Assembly (NCBI GenBank): GCA_014905635.1
Contig: JABVCE010000016.1
Location: 434,001-498,000, forward strand
Direction: 5' to 3'
Source: Scenedesmus sp. PABB004
Lineage: Eukaryota
Length of the DNA stretch: 64,000 nucleotides
Made by a program: the position numbers and the translations under genes. Under the pieces are notes generated by a model, which did not search any database, had not been told where the DNA came from, and was given only the letters and a program-made list of their open reading frames with translations. Below, piece after piece: positions 19,307 through 37,166 of this stretch (positions within the stretch are counted from its first letter, which is position 1; the number at the start of each line of letters is the position of its first letter).

Positions 19307-21753
19307 ATGAGCGGGGTGCAGCCGCCGGCCAACCCGGACCCGCTGCGCGAGACGGCGCGCTACACAAAGGTCGCCGACCTCAGCCACGGCAGCTTTGGCT
19401 TCGTGCAGCTCGCGCGCAACACGGAGACGCAGGAGCTGGTGGCGATCAAGTTCATCGAGCGCGGCGACCGCGTCAACAGGCGCGCGCGCGCGCGTCGCGG
19501 CGGCGGCGGCCGCAGCGCCGGCGCGCAGGGGCGCCGGGGCCTGTGCTGGCCCTGCTGGCCGCGCGCCCCGCCGCCGCCCACGCGCTCGCCCCCTGCCCCC
19601 GGACCCGCAGGTATGTCGAGGCGGAGATCCTGAACCACCGCATGCTGCGGCACCCGCACGTCATCGAGTTCAAGGAGGTCTTCATCACGAGCGAGTACAT
19701 CTGCATTGCCATGGAGTTTGCCAGCGGCGGCAGCCTCTTCACGTGAGCCCCCGCGCGCGCCGGGGCAGCAGTGGGCGCGGGGAGCAGCAGCGGGCGCGGT
19801 GGCGGCGCGGCGCGAGGAGCAGCGGCGCGAGCAGCGCGCGGAGGGCGCGGGGCGCTCACGCGCCGGCCGCCGGCCGCGCGCCGCGCAGGTACGTGCAGCG
19901 CGCGGTGCGCTTGAAAGAGGCGGCGAGCCGCTGGTTCTTCCAACAGCTCATCATCGGCCTCGACTACTGCCACCGCCGCGGCGTGGTCAACCGGGACATC
20001 AAGCTGGAGAACACGCTGCTGCAGGCGCGCCGCGGCGGCGCGGCCAGCTGCCAGCTCGCAGCGCGAGCGGCGCGGCGCTGGCAGCGGCGCGGCGCCGGTT
20101 GCGCCGCCCCGACCGCCGAGCGCCGCCCGCCCGCCGCGCGGCCGCCGCGCCGGCCGCCGCAGATGGTGCAGGGCCTGCCGCTGCCGCTGCTGAAGATCTG
20201 CGACTTTGGCTACAGCAAGGCGCACTTCATGAGCGCGCCCAAGTCCAAGGCGCGCTGCGCCGCGCGCGCGCCGGCCCGCGCGCCGGCTCGCGCGCGGGCT
20301 CACGCGCCGCGCCTCTCCCCGCGCGCCCCGCCCCAGGTCGGCACGCTCGCGTACATGGCGCCCGAGATCATCCGCGCGACCGGCAACTACGACGGCAAGA
20401 AGGCTGACATCTGGTGCGCCGCGCCGCGCCGCGCACCCACCTGACGCGCGCGCGGCGGCGCGCGCCGGGCGCGGGGGGAGGGCGCGCCCGCGCATGCCCG
20501 CGCGCCCGTCGCGGCGGCGCGCTCTCGCGGCGCGCGGCGCGTGCGTGTGACCTGTGTGTGTCTCCCCGCGCGCGCGCAGGAGCTGCGGCGTGATGCTGTA
20601 CGTGATGCTGTTTGGGCAGTACCCGTTTGAGACGCAGCAGCCGGGCGGGCCCAAGCTCGAGCCGGACCGGCGCATCCGGACGATGATGGACCGCATCGTC
20701 AACATGCAGGTGGCCTGGGGCTTTGAACGCAGCTTTGAACGGGCGGGCCGCGGGCTCAGGGTTCAGGGCTCAGGGTTCAGGCTCAAGGGGTCCTGGAGAG
20801 GACCGGCGGGGCGCGCGGCTCGCCCGCCCTCACGCGCGCCGCCGCGCGCCGCCGCCGCGGCCGCCGCCGCCGCAGTGGGCCATCCCAGGCGGCATCGAGA
20901 TCAGCGCCGAGTGCCGCGACCTGCTCGGCCGCATGCTCGTGCGCGCGCCGGACGAGCGCATCACGATGGCAGAGATCCACCGCCACCCCTGGTTCACCGC
21001 CAACCTGCCCGTCGAGGTGCGGCGGCGGCGCGTGCCGGCGGCGCGGCGCGGCGGTGGCGGGAGGGGCGCGGGCTCGCGCGCGCGCGCACGCGCGCGTCGC
21101 GCGCCGCCGCCGCCGACCGCCCTCACCGCTGCCGCTCTGCCCCCCCCCCCACCCCTAAACCCTACCCCCCCCCTAAACCCCGCAGGCGGTGTCGATGAAC
21201 GACAGCTACCTCAACGACGAGGACTACAGCGCCGTGCAGGCGCGCGCGCACGCACACGCCCGCCCGCCCGCCCTCTCTCGCCCTCTCTCGCCCTCCCCCT
21301 CTCTCGCCCTCCCCCTCTCCCTCTCTCCCTCTCTCCCTCGCTCCCTCTCTCCCTCTCTCCCTGCTCAACCCTCAACCCTTGGCCCCCGCCCCCCGCCCCG
21401 CCGCTGCCGCCGCGCGCAGAGCGAGGCCGACATCAAGCGCATCCTCAGCGAGGCGCAGACGCCGGGGCCGAACAAGTACAACTTTGACAGCGCCGGCGGC
21501 GAGGGCTACGAGGACGGCATGATCGACGACGCGATCGACGAGGAGTTCAACGAGAACGAGCAGTCGTTCAACCCGGTGCGCGCCGCGTGCGTGCTGCGTG
21601 CGCGCGTGTGCATGTTGTTGCGTGTGCACGCCGCGTGCGTGTGTGTGTTGCGTGTGCGTGTGCGTGTGTTGTGTTGTTGTTTGTTGTGCGTGTGCGACGC
21701 GGCAGAGCACGGTGCGCCCCGGCCGCAGGCAGGCCTGCTGACGCGCCGCCCGC

Positions 21754-24532: not shown

Positions 24533-25141
24533 TCACACGTCGCTGCGCCAGGCGTGCGCGCAGGTCGCGCACACATACTTCTGGATGGTCGAGCGCTCTT
24601 GGGCGTAGGTTCCGCCGCTCATGATGGTGTGCACCTGCGCCCGCTTCTCGCCGCACGCGGGGCAGCGCACCTCGGTGCTCACGTGCGTCCCGCCGCCGCC
24701 GACGCTCTGGCCCATCAGCTCCTCCCACACGCGCTCCGCGCGCAGCTCCTCGGCGCGCCGCGCCGCGCGCGCCGCCTGCTGCGACGCGGGCGCGAGCGCG
24801 GCGGCGCCGAGCCGCGCAACCTCGGCGACGCCCCGCTGCCCCGCGAGCAGCGCGGCCGCGACGCCGTCGGCATGGCGCAGCCCCGCGGAGAGCGTGCGGC
24901 AGCGGGCCTTATAATCGGCGCTGCCGCCGCACGCGGCGTGCAGCTCCGCCTCGAGCGCGGCCGCCAGCTCTTGCAGCCGCGAGGCCGGCGGCGGCGGCGC
25001 CGCGCGCGCCGGCGTGGCGCCGTCCTGCAGCTGCGCCGCCACCGCTGCGACGTGCGCCGCCAGCGCAGCTCGCAGCATCTCCACGACGCGCGCGCGCAGC
25101 CCTGCCTCGATGCCCCGCTGCGACTCCTGCTGATGCTTCTG

Positions 25142-25217
<76 letters not shown>

Positions 25218-26196
25218 GCCTGCTCCTGCTGCTTGGCCTTGGCAGCCGCCGCTGCTGCGGCCGCCACCTGCGCCCGCCAGGCCGACACCACCTCCGCGGC
25301 CAGCGCGCGGACCTGTGGGTGCGGGTGGTGCGACTTGAGCGCCGAGAGCTGCTTGCCCGCGCCCGTGGCGCGCAGCAGCTCCGCCGAGACTGGCCACATC
25401 AGCAGCCGCCGCAGCAGGCCCAGCGTGCCGTGCGCGTCGCCGGCGTCCGCGCCGCCGGCCTCGGCGCCGGCGGGCCGGCCCGCCTGCTGCTGCGCCGGCG
25501 CCGCGGCGCGCGGCAGGCGGTCGCAGAGCTCGCGCAGGCCCGACGCGACCTGGCGGCGCTGCCGGCTCGCCAGCGCGGCGTTGGCGGCGGCGATGACATC
25601 CGACAGCGGCCGCCCGCGCGCGCCTGCGCGTCGGCGCTCGGCCGGCCGGCCCTGCCGGCCTTGCCGCCGCCGCCGTCGTGGCCGGTGGCCAGGCGGAGCG
25701 ACATCAGCGGCGGCCCCGCCGGCTGCAGCGCCACGGGCCCCGACCACGCCTCCTCCAGGTCCACCACGCGCACCGCCGCGTTGAGCGCGCGCTGCAGCCC
25801 CGCGAGGCCGCCGTGCCCCGGCCGCTGCTGCTCGCCCTGCTGCCCCCGGCCGCCGCCGCCTGCGGCGCGCCCTCGGCCGCGCCGGCCGCCGGCGGCGGCG
25901 GCGGCGCCTCGGCCAGGCGCGCCATCCAGGCGAAGCGGCCGCTCGCCGCCGCTCGCTCGCGGCGCTGCCGCCGCGCGGCCAGCTCGGCCAGCAGCGCAGA
26001 GGCAAATGCGAGCGGCAGCTCCAGCTTCTCGGTGCGCAGCTGCGTGCACAGCGTGGTGTAGGTGTTGAGGTCGCTCGAGACGGCGTCCTGCACGTCCGGC
26101 GGCAGCGTGCCCACCAGCGCCGCGACGCCGCGCACGCTGAGCGCCGCGAGCGCACCACCCAGCGGCGGCGCCGCCGCCGGCGCGCCCTGCTGCTCC

Positions 26197-26251
<55 letters not shown>

Positions 26252-27160
26252 GCGCGATGTGCGCGGCGAGCGCGGCGCGCGCGCCCGCCGCGGCCGCGGC
26301 GGGCTGCAGCACCTCGAGCAGCCGCGCGAGCGCGCCGTCCTGCGCGGCAGACTGTCGCCGGCGCCTGGCGGGCACGCCGCTGCAAAAGGTCGTTGTGCCA
26401 GCATACTCGCCCACGCTGTCGCGGACCGAGCCGACAGAATTGACAAAGTCCACCACCAGCGGCTGCACGCGCGGCGGGTCGCCCCCGCCGGCGCGGCGAG
26501 GGCAGGGGCGGGTGACGCGGCCCAGTACCTGCACCGCGCGCGCGCCAGACAGCGCCCTGCGGCGGCGGAGCGGCGCGGCCGGCAGCGTTGGGCGCCGAGC
26601 GGGCGGGCGGGCGGGCCTTCCCCGGGCGCGCGGCCGGGGCACGCGGGGTGTCCCGCGCCGCGCGCGCCGCGCTGCGCGGGTCAACCAACCGGTCAATGAA
26701 GAGCGCCTTGAGTCGGGGGTCGTCGTAGCCAGTCTCAAACTTGCTGCACACGACCAGCAGCCGCGCGTCGCCGGGGCGCACGCCGCGGGGGTTGATGTCG
26801 CGCTCGCTCACCGCCACGGCCCCCGCCTCGCCCGCCGCCTCGCGCTCGCGCTCGCGCTCGCCGCCGGCGTCCGCGCCCACCTCCGCCTGCTCCGACCCGC
26901 CCTCGCGCTCGCTGTCCAGCTCGCTGCCGGGCTCCCCCGGCGGCTGCGCGCCGGGCGCGCTGCAGGACAGCGTGGACGCGTCGCGGCGCGGCCGCTTCCG
27001 CGCGCCGCCCGGCGGGGCCAGCTCCAGCCGCTCGGGCTGCTGGCCGCTGCCAGGCCCCGGGCCGCCCTCCTCCTCCGAGGCGGTGCCGAGGCCGTCGCTG
27101 CCGGCGGCGTTGCTGTCGCCGCCGCTGCTGCTGAGGCCGTCGCTGCCCACGCTCTCGCCC

Positions 27161-27215
<55 letters not shown>

Positions 27216-29498
27216 CCTCGTCGGCCGAGCCCGGCTCGGGCTCACTGCCTGCACCGCAGCCGCTGCTCTCGCCGCCGCTGCTCCTGGTGGTGGCGGCGCT
27301 CGCGCCCGCGCGCGCGGCGCTGTCGCAGGTGTTGCTGCGCCGCGCGCTGGCCGCGCCGCCGGCGCTCTGGCTGCCGCGCCGCGCCGGTGCCGGCTCCTGC
27401 CGTGCTTCCTGCTCCTGCTGCTGCTGCGCCGCCTGCTGCTCATCAAACGCGGCCAGCGCGGCGTCCCAGCCGCCCGTGGTGCGGCGGCGCTGCCGCGACG
27501 CGCCGCCGCTGCTGGCGGCGCGCTTGCGGCCGCCGCTCGGCGCGCCGCCGCCCGCGCCCTCCGCCGCTGCTGCGGCCAGGGGCGGGTAGGCGCCGCGCGT
27601 GAGCGCGTCCGCGTCCGCAGGCGAGACGGTCACGCTGCCGCTGAATGCGCCGTAAACCAGGGGCGCCGCGTCGCCGCGCGCCAGCGCCTCGGCGGCCGCC
27701 AGGTCCTCGCGCTCGCCTGCGGCGCGGGCGGCGCCCGGCGGCGTCGGCGTCGGCGTCGGCGGTGCCCGCCCCTGCCGCCGCGCGCGCCCCGCCCTGCGCC
27801 CGCGCCGCGTGCGCGGCCGCACCTGCGCGCCGCAGCGCTGCGGCCGCGACGTCCGCACGCGCGCCGAGCAGGCGGCGCAGCTCGGCAGCGTACCACGCGA
27901 CGTGCTGGCGCGAGCGCACGACCAGCATCGCCCGAAACTCCCCGAGCCCGGCGTCCTCGGCCTCGGCCCACGCCGCCATGAACCGCTCCGCCACCGCTGC
28001 TGCTTTGACCGCCACGAGCGTGCGGCTGGCGCTCGCCGCGGCGACGAGCAGCTCCGCGGCCAGGCCGCCGCCGCTGCCACCGCCGCCGGGGCCGCCGACG
28101 CCGGGGCCGCCGCCATCCCGCGCCTCGGCGGCTTCGAGCCGCGCGAGCGCGGCGCGCTGGTCGGGCCCGAGCGCGGCCGCGTCGATGTGGAAGCGGGGCG
28201 TGAGGGACACGAAGCGCCCGAGCGGGTTGAGCACCAGCCCGTCCCCGGCCGCGGCGGCGAGGGAGTACGTGTGGAAGGGCTCGTGCTGCGTCGCCGGCGT
28301 GAGGCGCTCGGGCGGGTGCGCGTCGTCGCCGGCGGCGCCCGGCGGCGCCGGCGCCGGCGCGGGTACGACGCCGCCGAGCGCGTCGAGCAGCACGGCGCGG
28401 CGCACGCCAAAGAGCTGCAGCGCGCGCGGGCTGGGCGTGGCGGTGAAGCCGACGTAGGTGAGCCACGGCGGCTGCTGCGCCGCGAGCGCGTCGCTGCCGC
28501 TGCTCGCCGGCGCCGCGGGCGCTGCGGCGCCGCCTGCCGCGAACGCGGCGAGGATGGCGGCGATTTGCTGGCTGCTGCTGCCGCCGTGGTGGCGGTGCGC
28601 CTCGTCGGCGATGATGACGACACGCCCGGGCCGCGCCGGCGCGGCGGCGGCGCCCCCCGACGCGGCCGCGCGCGCGGCCGCCAGCGTGGGGCCGCGGGCC
28701 GCGCCGCCGCCGGCCGCGCCCTGCTGCGCCGCCGAGTCGCCGCCGCCACTGGCGCCGCTGGCGCCCTGCCGGCGCGCCTGGCCGTGGCGCCAGAGCGCCG
28801 TGAGCTTCTGGATCGTCGTGAGCACCACGGCCGGGCGCCGCGGGTCGCCCAGCGGCGCCGCGAGGTGCTGCGCGAGCGCGGCGCTGCTCGCCGCGCGCGC
28901 GACGGCGCGGGCCGGGAGGCCGTTGCCTGCGGATGCGCGCGCGGGCGGGCGCGCGGGCGTGTCGCCGCCGCCGCACAGCACAGCGCGGCGCCCGGCTCCC
29001 CGCACGCGCACACGCGCACCTTGCAGGAACGCCGCGAGCGTGTCGCCGAGCTGCGCATCGAGCTGCAGGCGATCATTTACGACCAGCACGGTGTCGACGC
29101 GCCGCCCATCGCCGTCGGCCGTGCGCAGTAGCGCCGCCGCGAGCGCCGCGATGGTCAGGCTCTTGCCGCTGCCCGTCGCGTGCTGCAGCAGGTAGTTGAC
29201 GCCGCCCCCGCGGCGCGCTGGCGCGCCAGGCTGCTGGTCGGACGACCGCAGCGCCTTCACCAGCGCCACCACGGCGTCCACCTGCGGTTGTGGCGGCGGC
29301 GGCGGCGTCGCGCGCGCACGCGACGCCCAGCAGCGGCGCTGGCCACGCAGCGCAGTGGCGCGCCTGGTGCGGCCGCCCTGCGCCGCCGGCGGTGCCCGCC
29401 GCGAAGAGATGCTCTACAGCACGCCAGAGCGCATCAGCCTCGGTCGGCAGCTCCGCCGGCGGGCCGCCGGGGCCGTGCGCGGCGGTCGCCAGCGTTGG
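24533..29498 (-). CDS. Type I restriction R-subunit (HsdR)-like SF2 helicase/translocase apparently fused to a TFIIS-like module; spliced; start codon unresolved
   Basis: RPHQ/VDAV, NYLLQHATGSGKS, VLVVNDRLQLDAQL, TTIQK, IIADEAH, YVGFTATP, FHTYSL, AMLVVRSR, AFSG, LLVVCSKFETGYDDPRL..LFIDR/ALSG..AVQVLGRVTR, VVDF; then LRRLLMWPVSAELLRATGAGK...VVSAWR, LEAELH...YKARCRTL and CPAC-x27-CATC..WR. Confidence 0.85.
25138..25216 (-). repeat. (CAG)n polyglutamine tract between the TFIIS N-terminal and central domains
   Basis: Long (CTG)n run on + strand. Confidence 0.9.
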
Positions 29499-29799: not shown

Positions 29800-32700
29800 A
29801 TGGCGCTGCGTGCGGCGCAGCCGCAGCTGGGACTGGCATCGCGCCGGGCAACGCCCCGCGCCGTGGGCCGCGTGGCGCGGCCGTCTGCTGCGCCATGCCC
29901 CGCCGTCGGCGCGGGCCGCCGCTGGCCCGCTCGCCTCCGGGCCGCGGCCCCGGAGGCGCCCGAGGTTGATGCGCCGCTGGAGGTGCGCGGTGGCCAATCG
30001 GGGGCGCGCCCAGCGCGCCAGGCGGGCGGCGAATGGGGGCGCCCGCCTGGGGCCGCGCCATTCGCGGCGCGGCGCCCCGCGTGGCGCGGGGGGCGCGGCC
30101 CTGGGTCCTCCTGGGCGCCAGGCAGGCATCCGGCATTGCTGCGGGCGGCCCGGCGCCGCGGCGGCGCCGCGGCGCGCCCCGCCGCGCGGGCAGCAGCGGC
30201 GGCCGGCCGCCGACCGCGCCGCGCCGCCGCCAGATCCCCACCACCGAGGAGAGCACCAAGCCCTTCCCCTACGAGCTGCCGCTCGACCCCAACACCAAGG
30301 CGCTCGCGAGCGTGCCGCTGCCGCTGTTCTACCCCGGCGTGCTCGCCCTCGCCGCCGTGGCCGGCCTCGCCGGCGCGACGGTCGGCCGCGGGCTCCCCGG
30401 TGCGCGCCGACTGCAGCGCGGCGGCTGCAGCGCGGCGGCGGCGGCGGCCGGGCGGGCGCGGGGCCGGGGCGGCGAGGGAGGCACACGCCCGCAGCCGCGG
30501 CAGCGCGGCGCCCGCCGCGGCGCCGCCCGACCCCCGCGCGCGCCGCGCCGCCCCCCGCGCAGTCTCGCCCGAGGCCAAGCCCATCACGGCCGCGCTCGTG
30601 GGCGCCGCGCTCGGCGCGGGCGCGCTGTACGCGGGCTACCAGGCCAAGCAGAAGCGCGACGGCGCGGCGGTCATAGACCTCTACAACTACATCGTCGAGG
30701 TGTGGCCGCGCATTGCTGCTGCGCATTGCTGCCGCGCATTGCTGCCCCGGCAGCGGCGGCGGCCGCGCGCATTGTGCTGCTGCCGGCGGCGGCCGCGCGC
30801 GTTGCTGTCGGTGGGGCGTGCGGGCGCCGCCGCGCATTGCCGGCGCGCACCGCCGGCGGCCCCGCCCCGCCCGCGCCCTCACCCCGCCCTCACCCCGCGC
30901 CGCCGCGCCCGCCGCGTGCGCCGCAGCTGGACGACCCGACCGAGCTCACGCTCGACGCGGTCGCGGCGGTGGGGTCGCGCTACGGCATCGACATGCACAA
31001 GTCCCAGCTCGAGGGCCTGCAGAAGATCTACGGCCAGTACCTCGAGACCATCATCCCCACTGGCGACGCGCAGCTCACGTGAGACCCCGCTGGCCGCGCT
31101 GCGCCGCGCGGGCCGCGCCGCCGCGGCCGGGCGCCCGCGCCTCTGCGCGCGCCGCCGCCTCTGCGCCGCGGCGGCCGACCCGGCCCGCCTGCTGCCGCGC
31201 CGCGTCGCGCCGCAGCGGGGACGAGGCGGCCAAGGTGCGGCTGTTCAAGGACGTGCTCGGCCTCGCCGACGAGGACGCGGCGCCGGTGCACATCGAGGTC
31301 GGGCGCCGCCTGAGCCGCATCGGGTTCGAGTACAAGGACCGCACCGCGCAGGTGTGAAGCCCCGACCCGCACCGCACCGCACCGCACCGCACCGCACCGC
31401 CGCGCGCGGGACCACGCGCCGCCGCGGCGCCGCCGCGGGGCGGGGCCAGCCGCCGCCGCCGCCGCCGCGCCCGGCGCGCACGGTCGCCGCCCCCGGGCCG
31501 CGCGCCGCGCCCGAACCCGTCGCGGCGCGCCTCTCGCGTCGCGCGCAGTTTGAGCAGCGCAAGGCCTTCCAGCGCCTCGTGTACCTGAGCTACATCGTAT
31601 TCGGCGACCAGAAGGCCGCCTTCCTGCTGCCCTGGCGCCGCGTGTTCAACCTCACCGACGCGCAGCTCTTTGTCGCGCGCCGCGACAACGCGCGCGCGAT
31701 CTTCACCGGCCACCTCGCCGCGCGCGGCGGCGACTTCCCCGCCGAGCGGTGCGCGCCCGCGGCGGCGGCGGCGGCGGCTGGGAGCGCGCGCACGGCCTCC
31801 TGCGCCGCCCGGCGCAGCAGCGGCCCCGCGCCGCGTGCGCCGCGCGCGCCGCCGAGCCCCGCGCCGCCGCCCCCTGTCGCCGCGCGCCGCCCGCCGCGCA
31901 GGCAGTTCCTGCGCGAGCTGCGTGACTACCAGACGGCGATCAAGCTCTTTGACGAGAGCGCGGAGGAGGCGGTGCGGGCGGCGATGCGCGGCGTCGTCGA
32001 GGCGTCGCTCGCGCGCGCGGTCGAGATCACGCGCGCGCCCGGCAAGGCGCGCGACCCTGCGGCGATCGTCGAGGTGCGGCGGCGGCCGGCCGCGGCCGCG
32101 GCGGCGGTCAGCCCTGCCCCTGGCGCAGCGCGCGCGCGGGGGAGCCCGCCGTGCTCCCAGCCCGGCACACCACACCACCACCACCACCACCACCCACCGC
32201 CGCCGCGCGCGCGCCGTCGCACCACACACAACACACGCAGGCGCTGGGGCACGTGCTCGACTACAGCCGCAAGATGGCGCGCCTCGCCAACGACGACGAC
32301 CTGGTGCCGGGGCTGGGCCTGCCCACGATCCACGGCGGGCCGTGGGACGTCGAGACGCGGCGCCGCGACGTGCGCGACGCGTACAAGTGAGCGCGCGCGC
32401 GCGCGCGCGCGAGCGCGAGCGCGAGGGGAGCAGAAGCCGGGCCGCGGCGGCGCGGGCGACACGCCTCGTCGCTCGGGGACTGCCCAGCGCCGCCGACAGC
32501 AGCAACCCCCGAGCGCACGCGCTCGACACACACACCCACGCGCGCCACGCCGCGCCGCGCCGCCCCGCCGCGCCGCCCCGCGCAGGGCGTACGCCGAGGA
32601 GGTGGTGTCGCGCGAGGGGGGCTGACGCCGGCGATCGACGCCGACCTGAAGGAGCTCGCCGTCATCCTCTGCCTCGGCGCCAAGGAGGCCGGCGAGGTGC

Positions 32701-35210
32701 GGCGCCTCGGCCTGCGCGTGTGCGGCCCCCGCGCTGCGCCTGCTGTGTATGGTCTCCGCGCTGGCCCTGCCGTCCCCGCAGCGGCTGCGCCTGCTGCGCC
32801 TGCTGCGTGTTCTTGCGCTCGCCCCTCGCGCCGCGCCTCACGCGCACGCGGCCGCCCGCCCGCGCCGCACGCCGCGCCGCGCAGGTCCGCAGCAACATCG
32901 CTGGCGCGCTGTACAAGCGCCTCCTGCGCGAGGCGGTGACGACCCGGCGCATTGACGAGGCCGCCTCGCCCGCACAGGTGCGCGGCGCGCGCGCCCTCCC
33001 GCCCGCCGCGCGCCTGGGCCGCCGCCTGCCGCCCGCCGCCCGCGCCCCGTCCCTCCCTCCCGCCCACGCCCGCACCGATCCCGCCCACGCCCGCCCGCAC
33101 CGACCAATGCGCGCCCGCCGGCCGCGCCAGGTGCTGGGCGAGCTGGTCGAGCGGTCGGGCTACTCACCCCAGGCCGCGGCGGAGCTGCACAAGAGCCTCT
33201 ACCGCACCAAGCTCGGCCAGCTGGTCGCCAAGAAGAAGCTCACGCCGGAGGAGCAGGAGGAGCTCAAGCGCATCCGCCGCATCCTCTGCATCCCCGGCGA
33301 CGCCGCCGCGCAGGTGCGTGCGCGTGCGCGACCGCGTGCGCGCGACCGCGTGCGCGTGTTTGTGTGCGTGCGCGCGCCTTGGCTGCCGTCGCCGCCCTCC
33401 TCACCCTCGCACCCACGCCCCGCGCAAATCACTCGCACGCGGCTTGCACGCACGCGCCCCACCCCCCGCCGCCGCGCGCGCCCCTCGCCCGCGCCGCCGC
33501 CGCACGCGCGCCTCACCGGCGCCACCGCGCTCAACCCTTCTCCCGCCAGGTGCTGCGCGGCACCGCGGGCCGCGTGCTGGAGGAGGTGCTGGCCGACATC
33601 TACCTCATGGGCGCCAAGCCGGTCGGCGAGTACGAGGCGGAGCGCGTCGACGCGACCGTGCGCGACCTGGCGCTCGACCGCTCCGTCGCGCTCGACGTGC
33701 TCAAGGCGCGCCGGCGCGGGAGGGAGGGGGGGGGAGGGCCGGCGGGAGGGAGGGAGGGGCGGCGGGAGGGAGGGAGGGGCGGCGCGGCGCGGCGGCGGCG
33801 GGGCGAGGCGGCGGCGGGGGGCGAGGGAGCGAGCGAGCGGGCGCGTGGGGAGGAGTGCGCGGGGGCGGGCGCCGACCGGGCGCCGGCTGCCGCGCCGCGC
33901 CGCGCAGGACGTGACGCGGCAGCGCTTCAAGGCGTACGTGCAGCAGGCGCAGAAGGAGCGCGACCGGCGCAGCGCGGCGCAGGTGCTCAAGAAGCTCGTC
34001 CAGGTGCGGCGGCGCGCGCCGGGCCCCGCCGCGCCTGCAGCGCGCCGTCGCCGCCCGCCCAGCACGCCCCACGGCCTCGCCGCGTGCGTGGCTAAACTCA
34101 ACCCCCGCCGCGCCGCGCCGCCGCCGCTGCGCTGAATTGAATTGACTGAACCACAGTTCAACGCGCTCGTCGTCACGCCGATCCTTGAGAAGGTCAAGGG
34201 CGCGGGCAACGAGGCCGCCAAGAAGGAGCTGGCGGACCTGCTGGTGCAGGCCGCGGAGAAGGCCAAGCAGGAGGAGGCGGCCGAGGCGGCGGCCAAGGCC
34301 AAGGAGGCGGGCGAGGCGGCGCCGGCCGGCGCCGAGGCGAGCAGCAGCGGCGCCGACGCGGGCGCGGCGGAGAGCAGCAGCAGCAGCAGCAGCAGCGCGC
34401 CGGAGGGCGAGCAGCCCAAGGAGCTGCAGGTGCGGCGCCGCGGCGCCGCGCGCACGCGCCCGCGCCTGCCTCGCCGCCCCCCTGTCTGCACCCCCCTCCA
34501 CCTCCTCCTCGCGCCCGCCCCTCCCCGCGCCCGCCCCCCCTTCTCACCCGCCCTCCTCTCGCGCCCGCCCCTCCCCCCTCCCCTGCCCCGCCAGGTCAAG
34601 GCGGAGGAGGGCGCGGCGGAGAGCGTGAAGAAAATGATTGCCGCGCAGCGCGGCGAGTTTGGGGACGAGGAGCGCAAGGGCCAAAAGGAGATCACGCTCG
34701 GCGACGACCTCGAGCCCCCCGTGCGGTGAGCCGCGCGACGCGGCGGCGGGGTTCAGGGTTGAGGGTTCAGGGGGGGGGGGGGGGTCGCTCGCTCGCTCGC
34801 TCGCCTCCCCCGTCCCTCGAGCGCGCTTGGCCCCACCACAACTCACTCCTTGCTGCTCGCTCAAACTGCTCGCTCAAACTGCCCGGCCCGCCGACCCTGA
34901 CTCGCCCAACCAATCAACCGACCGACCAACCGCTGTTCAAACGCTGTTCAAACGCCGCAGCGCTGAGCTGTACAAGAACTACCTCATGTACAGCATGAGC
35001 GGCGACGTGGTGGAGCTGCCCGTCGGCGGCGTCATCCGCAAGAAGAGCTCCCTCGTCACGCGCCAGGTGCGTGCATCGTGCGTGTGCGTGTGTGTGTGTG
35101 TGCGCGTGCGCGCGTGTGGGGCGGGGCGCGGGGCGTGCGGGGGCTGCGGGGCGGCGCGCGGGGAGGGGGGAGCGGGAGGTGGAGAGAGGGGGGCGCGCCC
35201 CTCTGGGCGC

Positions 35211-35246
<36 letters not shown>

Positions 35247-37166
35247 GACCGCGCGCGCGTCGCGCGGCGCGTCCCCGCGCCCGCGCCGCGCAGGCGGAGA
35301 TGGCGCGGCTGCAGCAGCTGGGCGACCTGCTGGGCATGGGCATGCCAGAGGTGGCCGCCGTGCACAACGACCTCGCGGAGCAGGCGTACCGCAGCCAGGC
35401 GCGCGCGCGCGGCGCGGCACCGGCCCTGCGCCCGCCCGCGCGCCGCCCCGCTCAGCGCGCGCCGGCGCCGCCAGCACACCGCCGCGCGCCTCCCCCGCAC
35501 GGCGCGTGCTGACACACACAGACGCGCCCCGCGCGCGCGCGCAGGCCCAGGACGTGCTGCGCGGCAGCGGGTCGCTGAGCGAGGAGCGCAAGACGTACCT
35601 GGAGGAGCTGCGCGCGCAGCTTAACATCGGCAAGGAGGCGGCAGACAAGATCATCCGGTGCGCGGGGGCGCGGAGGCGTGGAGGGTGCAGGCCGCGTGCA
35701 GGGGCGGGGGCCGCAGGGCCCTCGGACGCGGCCGGCGCCGCGCGGGCGCCGGCCCCCGCCGCCGCGCCCGCCACGCGGCGCGCGCCGCCGCCCACGCGCG
35801 CGCCCCTGCGCGCCCCTGCGCGCCCGCAGCGAGGTGCGCACCGAGGTGCTCGGCGCCGCCGCCGCGCTCGAGGGCGAGGAGCGGTGGACGATCGACAAGG
35901 TGCGCACGCGCACGCGCGCCCGCGGCGCGGCGCGGCGCGGCGCCCGTCCGCCGCCTCCCGCGCCTCTGCCGCCCCGCGGCCCGTGAACGGCCGTCAGCAC
36001 CGGCGGCGGCGGTCCGGCACCACGTGCGCCGACCCGAAACCCTAAACCCTCGCCCCGCCGCGCCGCGCCCCGCCGCGCCGCGCCGCGCCGCGCCGCGCCG
36101 CGCCAGGTGCTGGGCATGCACAAGGAGGGCGTGTCCATCCCCAAGATGCTCGAGGAGCCGCAGCGCCGCATGCTGCTGCGCAAGGAGATTGACCGCCGCC
36201 TCAACGACGGCAAGGGTGAGCGCGCCGCGCCGCGCCGCGCCTCGCTCCCCCCCCCTCGCTGCTTGCGCGCGCCGCGCACCTGGGCCGCGACGCCCGCGAC
36301 GCCCGCGACGCCCGCCCCGCCCCTGCGTGCGCGCGCGCGCGCAGGCGAGTTTGACGCCGACCTCCTGCTGCGCGAGCTGCCGGCGGTGCTAGACATCGAG
36401 GACCGCCGCGTGCGCATGCTCATAAAGGAGCTCGTCGGCGCGCGCAAGTGAGCGGCCGCGCACGGCGCGCGCGCGGCGGGGTGTAGGGGCGAGCGGGGGC
36501 CTGGACCGGCTTGGACCGGCCCGGTCCGGCAGCGGTCCAGGCGGGCTCGGGGCGCCGGCCGGCGCTCGAGGGCTCAGCGGCGGCCGCCCGGGGGCGCGGC
36601 CGGGGGCGCGCCCGCCGCCGCCGCCGCTGCACGCGCGGCCGCCGACCCGGCGCCGGCGCCGGCGGTCCGCGCGCGCCCCGCAGGCGCATGCTGCTGGTGC
36701 AGGCGGTCTCGCAGCACCGCCAGCGGCGCCCGGGCGACGCGGTGACCTCGCTGCTCAACCTGGTGTCGGCGTACCGCGCAGCGCCGGAGGAGTCCGCGCC
36801 CGGCGCGGGCAGCGTGGGCGTGGTGCAGTGGGGCGAGCGCGAGGAGCTGAAGGACCTGTACGGCATCTTTGCCGCCAAGGTGAGGCCGCCGGGGAGCGGC
36901 GGGGCTTGGGGTTGAGGGTTTAGGAGGGGAGGGCCCCCGCGTTTGGCGGGGCGCGTCGGTCGCTGCGGTGTCCGCGGCGTCTGCGCCGCCGCCGACCCCG
37001 CCCCGCCGCGCCGCGCCGCGCCGCGCAGGTCGCGGACGCCGCGAAGCGCGAGGAGCTCGCGGGGCTGTTTGGCCTGAGCCCAGAGGACACGGCCGACATC
37101 CTCGCGAGCAGCGGCAAGACCGCGGACAAGCTGCGCGTGGAGGCGGAGGAGGAGGCGTTCTTCTGA
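29800..37166 (+). CDS. TIC110: Chloroplast inner-envelope translocon TIC110; many exons; one apparent 1-nt frameshift at 32616-32621
   Basis: Transit peptide, two N-terminal TM helices, HIEVGRRL, EQRKAFQRLVYLSYIVFGDQKAAFLLPWRRVFNLTDAQLFVARRDNA, QKEITLGDDL, LYKNYLMY, LLVQAVSQHRQR, ends EEEAFF*. Confidence 0.93.

Follow-up and report, generated by a model that had tools for sequence, protein, structure and literature searches.

Even conservative changes of its Asp-Glu pair are known to inactivate TFIIS, and engineered eukaryotic TFIIS with a mutated pair is a polymerase inhibitor, the same effect as that of archaeal TFS4. According to the available parts of two accounts (PMC7111264, PMC9860460), domain II of TFIIS lies on the Rpb1 jaw and the linker enters the funnel, and at the tip of domain III residues D290 and E291 hold the cleavage metal in place, with R287 possibly stabilising the transition state; portions of PMC7111264 and PMC5715097 describe both acidic residues as a conserved catalytic pair. 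In Sulfolobus, as set out in excerpts from PMC5715097, the cleavage-factor paralogue TFS4 has lost the acidic pair at its ribbon tip, does not stimulate cleavage and inhibits RNAP via the secondary channel, and swapping the tips of TFS1 and TFS4 exchanges their activities. RECQL5, in the accessible text of PMC12440807, is an SF2 helicase positioned on the jaw at the TFIIS site whose braking of Pol II requires helicase activity, and in Bye1, PHF3 and DIDO a reused TFIIS domain II seats the protein on Pol II without any cleavage (PMC12139180). A TFIIS homologue in Chlamydomonas reinhardtii is mentioned in the available part of PMC8886746. We found no published description of a helicase–TFIIS fusion or of its hairpin in the literature on TFIIS paralogues, helicases, HsdR and green algae (main texts): the TFIIS-family review PMC12139180 holds no occurrence of helicase, alga, Chlamydomonas, ATPase or restriction, and a second family survey, PMC13289920, none of helicase or Chlorophyta.

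The window, by which we mean the whole 64,000-nucleotide stretch analysed, ranges from 71 to 83% G+C and carries intron-split eukaryotic genes. Among the neighbours of the gene described below are a protein kinase (19395-21500, plus strand; PF00069, E 1.1e-15) and, in head-to-head orientation with it, a Tic110 gene (about 30000-36000, plus strand; PF16940, E 2.5e-31), whose product is a chloroplast envelope protein. Intron-split eukaryotic genes together with Tic110 therefore identify the window as nuclear DNA of a plastid-bearing, green-alga-like organism. The gene under study is about 5 kb long, contains introns and, in a model built from homology, runs on the minus strand from about 29.5 kb down to 24536 (Table 1). 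Its zinc ribbon is best explained, from sequence comparison, as domain III of a TFIIS paralogue, which would make up the last third of a large protein of chlorophytes; the N-terminal two thirds are best explained, from profile matches, as an HsdR-type SF2 motor without a nuclease domain.

Table 1. Coordinates of the helicase–TFIIS gene and its parts within the window, in the direction of transcription
Feature	Position	Strand	Evidence
Probable 5' coding part (ALWRAVEHLF, 29403-29432)	29282..29476, approximate	-	tblastn of P0011 extends to 29476
Motor N-lobe	27866..29281	-	PF18766 E 4.2e-15, PF04851 E 1.2e-10
Motif I, HATGSGKS	29159-29182	-	translation
Motif II, IADEAHRH	28589-28612	-	translation
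Motif III, GFTATP	28433-28450	-	translation
Motor C-lobe, HsdR-type domain 3	26430..26808	-	tblastn, profiles
C-lobe segment LVVCSKFETGYDDP	26716-26757	-	translation
Motif VI, QVLGRVTRP	26505-26531	-	translation
C-lobe VVDFVNSVG	26430-26456	-	translation
Family-specific conserved segments between motor and TND: LELPLAFASALL..., VRVVDLEEAWSG, RPLSDVIAAANA	25577..26024	-	tblastn collinearity with P0006, P0007, P0011; frames change
TFIIS N-terminal domain (TND, Med26 type)	25265..25417	-	PF08711 E 4.5e-10, 39.6 bits (cut-off 20.6), P0001 residues 344-394
Low-complexity stretch of poly-Ala and poly-Gln separating the TND from domain II	25103..25264	-	sequence
TFIIS central domain (domain II), including YKARCRTLSAGLRH and LAPA	24782..25102	-	PF07500, VIA
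Interdomain linker with conserved W-E and GGGGTH motif	24665..24781	-	aligned to TFIIS linker (GGT in TCEA1)
C4 zinc ribbon, TFIIS domain III type, CPAC-x27-CATC-x3-WR	24545..24664	-	sequence, PF01096, hhalign, model
CPAC	24653-24664	-	translation
Hairpin tip SGGTYAQER in place of QTRSADEP; D replaced by Q, E kept, three residues longer	24593..24619	-	alignments, model
CATC	24560-24571	-	translation
Stop codon	24533-24535	-	translation

The same architecture occurs in Pleodorina starrii (P0007, 1798 aa) and Edaphochlamys debaryana (P0011, KAG2501461.1, 1744 aa), with fragments from Tetrabaena socialis and Chlamydomonas sp. UWO 241, and a transcript-derived ORF of another alga (P0006, EukProt GHRR01006055) runs from the motor C-lobe through the ribbon; the named algal relatives are annotated just as hypothetical or as 'TFIIS ... 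domain-containing'. In tblastn, the Pleodorina and Edaphochlamys proteins give collinear minus-strand matches from 29476 down to 24539, in which changes of frame mark introns. An earlier, sequence-only reading of this stretch had coupled the ribbon to a motor; that the two belong to one gene and that the motor is of the SF2 type is borne out by the collinearity and the PF18766 and PF04851 matches, and motifs I, II, III and VI of the motor are all intact. A free-standing TFIIS gene beside a separate helicase gene was considered and rejected: the segments are collinear with single Pleodorina and Edaphochlamys proteins and with the transcript ORF. Because GC-rich DNA leaves nearly every frame open, it might also be supposed that the ribbon is an artefact, left by a pseudogene in decay or by Cys codons falling into a pattern by chance where the GC content is 78%. 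Conservation at the protein level, shared along the entire gene with named proteins of algae, the transcript-derived ORF covering motor C-lobe to ribbon, and the invariance of the motifs all stand against such an artefact, which we regard as extremely improbable.

The motor itself is placed by NCBIfam in the family of HsdR, the motor subunit of type I restriction enzymes. Bacterial HsdR proteins are its nearest prokaryotic relatives, and share with it the motor lobes and domain 3 (PF18766, PF04851, PF22679). The domain 3 profile (T1R_D3-like, PF22679) is weak on the window (E 0.038) and exceeds its cut-off in P0038 and P0065, two other fusions of the family, and the HsdR profile TIGR00348 aligns from profile positions 246-674 only, that is, over the motor without the nuclease part. 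Where the bacterial relatives do carry the N-terminal nuclease PF04313, this domain is missing from the algal gene, which is eukaryotic and has introns; no PF04313 match was found in the four full-length fusions scanned (P0007, P0011, P0038 and P0065). The motor region of the gene also holds Ala-, Gly- and Ser-rich inserts, and the segments LELPLAFASALLAEL...GRFAW, VRVVDLEEAWSG and RPLSDVIAAANA (25577-26024, minus strand), which have no Pfam match, are common to P0002, P0005, P0006 and P0007. Nuclease-less HsdR-type motors occur elsewhere among eukaryotes (the P0112-P0114 set), as proteins of about 820 aa that lack TFIIS domains in Entamoeba and, in the oomycete Hyaloperonospora brassicae, joined to a WW domain (PF00397); the WW fusion may be another way of linking an HsdR-type motor to the transcription machinery.

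Beyond the motor, the order of TFIIS is complete in one gene, with N domain, central domain, linker and C4 ribbon following one another, and as judged from profiles and a structural model the module is a complete TFIIS comprising domains I, II and III. The translated minus-strand frame 24533-26446 ends in ...STEVRCPACGEKRAQVHTIMSGGTYAQERSTIQKYVCATCAHAWRSDV followed by the stop, a C-terminal stretch also given as GGGGTHVSTEVRCPACGEKRAQVHTIMSGGTYAQERSTIQKYVCATCAHAWRSDV and stop, and the ribbon (CPAC...CATC...WR) makes up the final 40 residues of the gene; the TFIIS N domain lies farther upstream in this frame. The central domain scores below the PF07500 cut-off in the window (E 4.8e-5, 24.2 bits, cut-off 29.2); orthologues score 33.9, 31.7 and 55.1 bits, with P0011 and P0007 exceeding the cut-off. 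In structure comparison with VIA-align, the model matches TFIIS domain II in 8uis_S with Z 12.2 (rmsd 2.8, 114 residues), and the domain II of Bye1 and PHF3 with Z 11.2-11.7. An in-frame poly-Gln run of more than 20 Q, flanked by poly-Ala, occupies about 25103-25264 (minus strand).

The ribbon fold and its homology to TFIIS are supported by several comparisons, in sequence and in the predicted structure, though the curated Pfam cut-off is not reached (PF01096 on the window ribbon gives 14.1-17.6 bits against a cut-off of 21, E 0.003-0.04). Queried as a single sequence, the ribbon region of the window finds its closest PDB counterpart in the archaeal ribbon 1qyp (E 0.0077); RPA12 and RPC10 come next. 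A six-member family profile run against PDB sequences yields 12 matches at E <= 1, of which the top eight are TFIIS, including TCEA1 (9eh1_S, E 6.4e-4) and Dst1, and the alignment is collinear across the second half of domain II, the linker with its common GG-T motif, and the ribbon. Profile-profile comparison by hhalign of 13 family sequences with three canonical TFIIS sequences gives a probability of 98.2% (E 3.4e-14), and TIGR01385 (TFSII) matches the relative P0065 at E 6.6e-22. An AlphaFold model of the last 198 residues, built with a 36-row alignment, has a mean pLDDT of 91.8 and pTM of 0.71, and each of its seven Foldseek matches at E <= 0.001 is a TFIIS chain from a Pol II complex (best 7unc_O, E 1.4e-7). 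Taken by itself, the ribbon of the model (residues 147-198) aligns in VIA-align to RPA12 with Z 6.4 (4c2m, 48 residues, rmsd 2.3) and, with Z 5.8, to 48 of the 50 residues of the TFIIS ribbon 1tfi. The domain recognised in the sequence-only reading as a TFIIS-like zinc ribbon is thus supported by profiles, Foldseek and VIA as a TFIIS/RPA12-type ribbon C-terminal to a TFIIS central domain, and it can be modelled as such.

That reading had also held that the canonical QTRSADEP hairpin is replaced by a slightly longer loop with AQE and that the catalytic acidic pair is lacking; the first of these claims is upheld in full and the second in part. The Cys spacing is C-x2-C-x27-C-x2-C, compared with x24 in the canonical TFIIS sequences recovered here, so that the loop is three residues longer; the Asp-Glu acidic hairpin that marks TFIIS membership (QTRSADEP) is absent, the tip reading AQE. 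In the model the tip comprises residues 172-179 (GGTYAQER) between strands 164-171 and 180-187. All four Cys are invariant in the 36 aligned relatives, and because of this, and because the loop is kept in orthologues, a chance Cys pattern can be dismissed. An exhaustive profile search recovered 73 representatives at E <= 0.001, 25 of them at E <= 1e-10. Loops were counted over the profile-search hits, the first hits and the window, restricted to complete GGTYA-type loops (n=24, some of them near-duplicates such as P0003/P0008); in this set GGTYA, the Glu and the following Arg are kept in every loop, and the residue preceding the Glu is Q in 19, I in two and E in three. What has gone from the acidic pair is therefore the Asp, which occupies that position in none of the 24 complete family loops, whereas the Glu is invariant and a sister clade (P0033, P0038 and P0046) carries EE instead of QE. 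Two outcomes that the sequence-only reading had named as refuting it, a loop that varies among orthologues and a ribbon that defies modelling on TFIIS, did not occur.

The alignment of this tip to the canonical one depends on the method used. HMMER and hhalign place AQE over ADE, with two extra residues ahead and one behind and with Gly at the canonical Arg position, and MAFFT places ER over DE; the register is ambiguous, yet as aligned a single carboxylate is left in either case. The counterpart of Arg R287 is apparently gone too if the HMM register is followed. Eight fragments from other assemblies (P0016, P0018-P0021, P0028, P0030 and P0042) break off at GGTYAQV, as if in those species the Gln codon of the hairpin tip were followed by an intron that the gene models run into; in the window the tip is uninterrupted, CAA GAG CGC being read straight through.

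Fusions of the motor with TFIIS domains were seen in 17 proteins including that of the window, and they fall into several classes by tip. Four (the window, P0006, P0007 and P0011) have GGTYAQER and one (P0038) has GGTYAEER; nine (P0065, P0101-104, P0106-108 and P0110) have NSMGAVHLT(S/A)VPD or a close variant, with QSMG in P0106, NSLG in P0110 and VPDI in P0107; two (P0115 and P0117) have other tips and one (P0111) an irregular tip. SADE is present in none of the 17 helicase–TFIIS fusions, and loss of the canonical acidic hairpin therefore goes with fusion. Free-standing TFIIS paralogues (P0049, P0059 and P0073, 160-312 aa) show another non-canonical tip, MKGGWISSEKE or similar; P0049 and P0059, which were scanned, contain TND and domain II, and in metagenome assemblies the P0049 cluster numbers 29 members. 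A tree of domain II and ribbon, built by a quick method from 127 columns and 29 of the 36 rows after the seven shortest fragments had been dropped, recovers a QE/IE clade (SH-aLRT 97) adjoined by the EE pair (SH-aLRT 96-97). NSMGAV fusions, standalone paralogues and canonical TFIIS form an open fork in this tree, and for that reason it does not settle whether the fusion had a single or multiple origins.

It is conceivable that such a tip still stimulates cleavage, with the Glu and the Gln (or a second Glu) positioning metal B or the attacking water and the motor coupled to RNA cleavage and restart. The Glu retained in 24/24 loops, with EE in 3/24 (P0033, P0038 and P0046), is compatible with residual or altered catalysis; the position of the EE clade next to the QE clade on the quick tree is compatible with a DE to EE to QE series, and a tip so strongly conserved over its full length implies that it makes a specific contact. 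Against a remodelled catalytic tip, Asp is found in none of the 24 loops and Q or I takes its place in 21, Gly stands at the Arg-equivalent position (HMM register), the tip is three residues longer, and both acidic residues make up the conserved catalytic pair in the available portions of PMC7111264 and PMC5715097. On balance we consider retained cleavage stimulation quite unlikely. The conserved loop without the catalytic Asp instead suggests that the module probably serves as an anchor rather than in cutting RNA.

It might also be that the ribbon no longer enters the polymerase pore, acting as a structural zinc, surface or nucleic-acid-binding module like the C-ribbon of Rpb9, or serving Pol I, Pol III or a plant-type Pol IV/V, with polymerase binding through domain II alone as in Bye1 and PHF3. 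The ribbon alone does match RPA12, RPB9 and RPC10 in structure no worse than it matches TFIIS; Bye1 and PHF3 (Z 11.2-11.7 above) show that domain II can bind alone, and several unrelated tip sequences occur among the fused forms. However, the linker GGT motif and the ribbon are kept in all clades, proteins that use domain II only have lost the ribbon, and the tips are tightly kept within each clade, as in the P0065-type ribbons, where seven of nine have NSMGAVHLT(S/A)VPD and the other two differ by 1-2 substitutions. Such tight clade-wise conservation argues for a specific buried contact, and a ribbon outside the pore seems to us unlikely, if somewhat less so than a catalytic tip. We infer Pol II as the partner polymerase solely from the TFIIS and TND ancestry of the module.

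Returning to the non-cleaving anchor, we would give roughly even chances, by analogy with the systems outlined above, to a module that holds both pore and jaw and so tethers a putative DNA translocase to Pol II, close to RECQL5 in arrangement and to TFS4 in the logic of its tip. Under such a mechanism domain II would bind the Rpb1 jaw, and linker and ribbon would follow the TFIIS route into the funnel and pore of Pol II, where the longer, altered tip would fail to complete the cleavage active site; against this, a tip with three more residues may not fit the pore. A non-cleaving tip would make of the module an anchor, sensor or plug competing with canonical TFIIS, and an ATP-driven translocase placed near the downstream DNA could brake, push or dislodge a stalled Pol II. 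The fuller proposal is more tentative and, in our estimate, falls clearly short of an even chance: that green algae and some metagenome relatives possess a Pol II-directed translocase, a domesticated, nuclease-less type I restriction motor aimed by a complete but catalytically disabled TFIIS. On stalled or backtracked Pol II, its dead hairpin would sense the pore or plug it as the motor pulls on the DNA downstream, and the polymerase would thereby be braked, restarted or evicted.

Each of the described systems shares a part of this design and departs from it in another. TFIIS (Dst1/TCEA1) is the best match in sequence and structure, with the same three-domain order, linker motif and C4 ribbon fold; its tip is QTRSADEP where the algal one is SGGTYAQER, without Asp, without Arg (HMM register) and with three more residues, and it is a free factor of about 300 aa, whereas the algal module is the C-terminal part of a motor protein of 1,700-1,800 aa (as seen in the two full-length named relatives). 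TFS4 of Sulfolobus, as far as the available text of PMC5715097 describes it, is likewise a cleavage-factor paralogue with the acidic pair lost at the ribbon tip, but has a shorter tip with three lysines and two ribbons, and has neither TFIIS domains I/II nor a motor; a shortened tip with three lysines of the TFS4 type is absent from the algal ribbon (GGTYAQER, three residues longer), and the resemblance would be one of function only. RECQL5 (PDB 9hvo) is an SF2 helicase held on the Rpb1 jaw where TFIIS domain II docks, but its motor is of the RecQ rather than the HsdR type, it sends no linker and ribbon into the pore, and it comes from animals. Domain II of our model (residues 1-92, equivalent to 24854-25129 on the minus strand of the window) matches the RECQL5 KIX/IRI (9hvo_O) with Z 7.9, rmsd 2.4 over 76 residues. 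A RecQ core with an IRI (brake helix plus KIX) was not matched in the algal gene, whose motor is HsdR-type, the jaw-binding fold alone being similar; RECQL5 is an analogue, not a relative. Bye1, PHF3 and DIDO have no TFIIS-type ribbon whose conserved hairpin enters the pore, and combine domain II with PHD and SPOC domains, not with a motor (PMC12139180).

A natural, conserved eukaryotic TFIIS paralogue with an altered tip, hard-wired to an ATP-driven restriction-type motor, would parallel archaeal TFS4, and if the module docks in the pore, stalled Pol II would be resolved or regulated in a manner new to the field. Direct tests are feasible in Chlamydomonas-type algae. If the proposal is true, the algal protein would clearly exemplify how the transcription machinery can domesticate a motor from defence, and would be a eukaryotic counterpart of Mfd and RECQL5 built from different parts.
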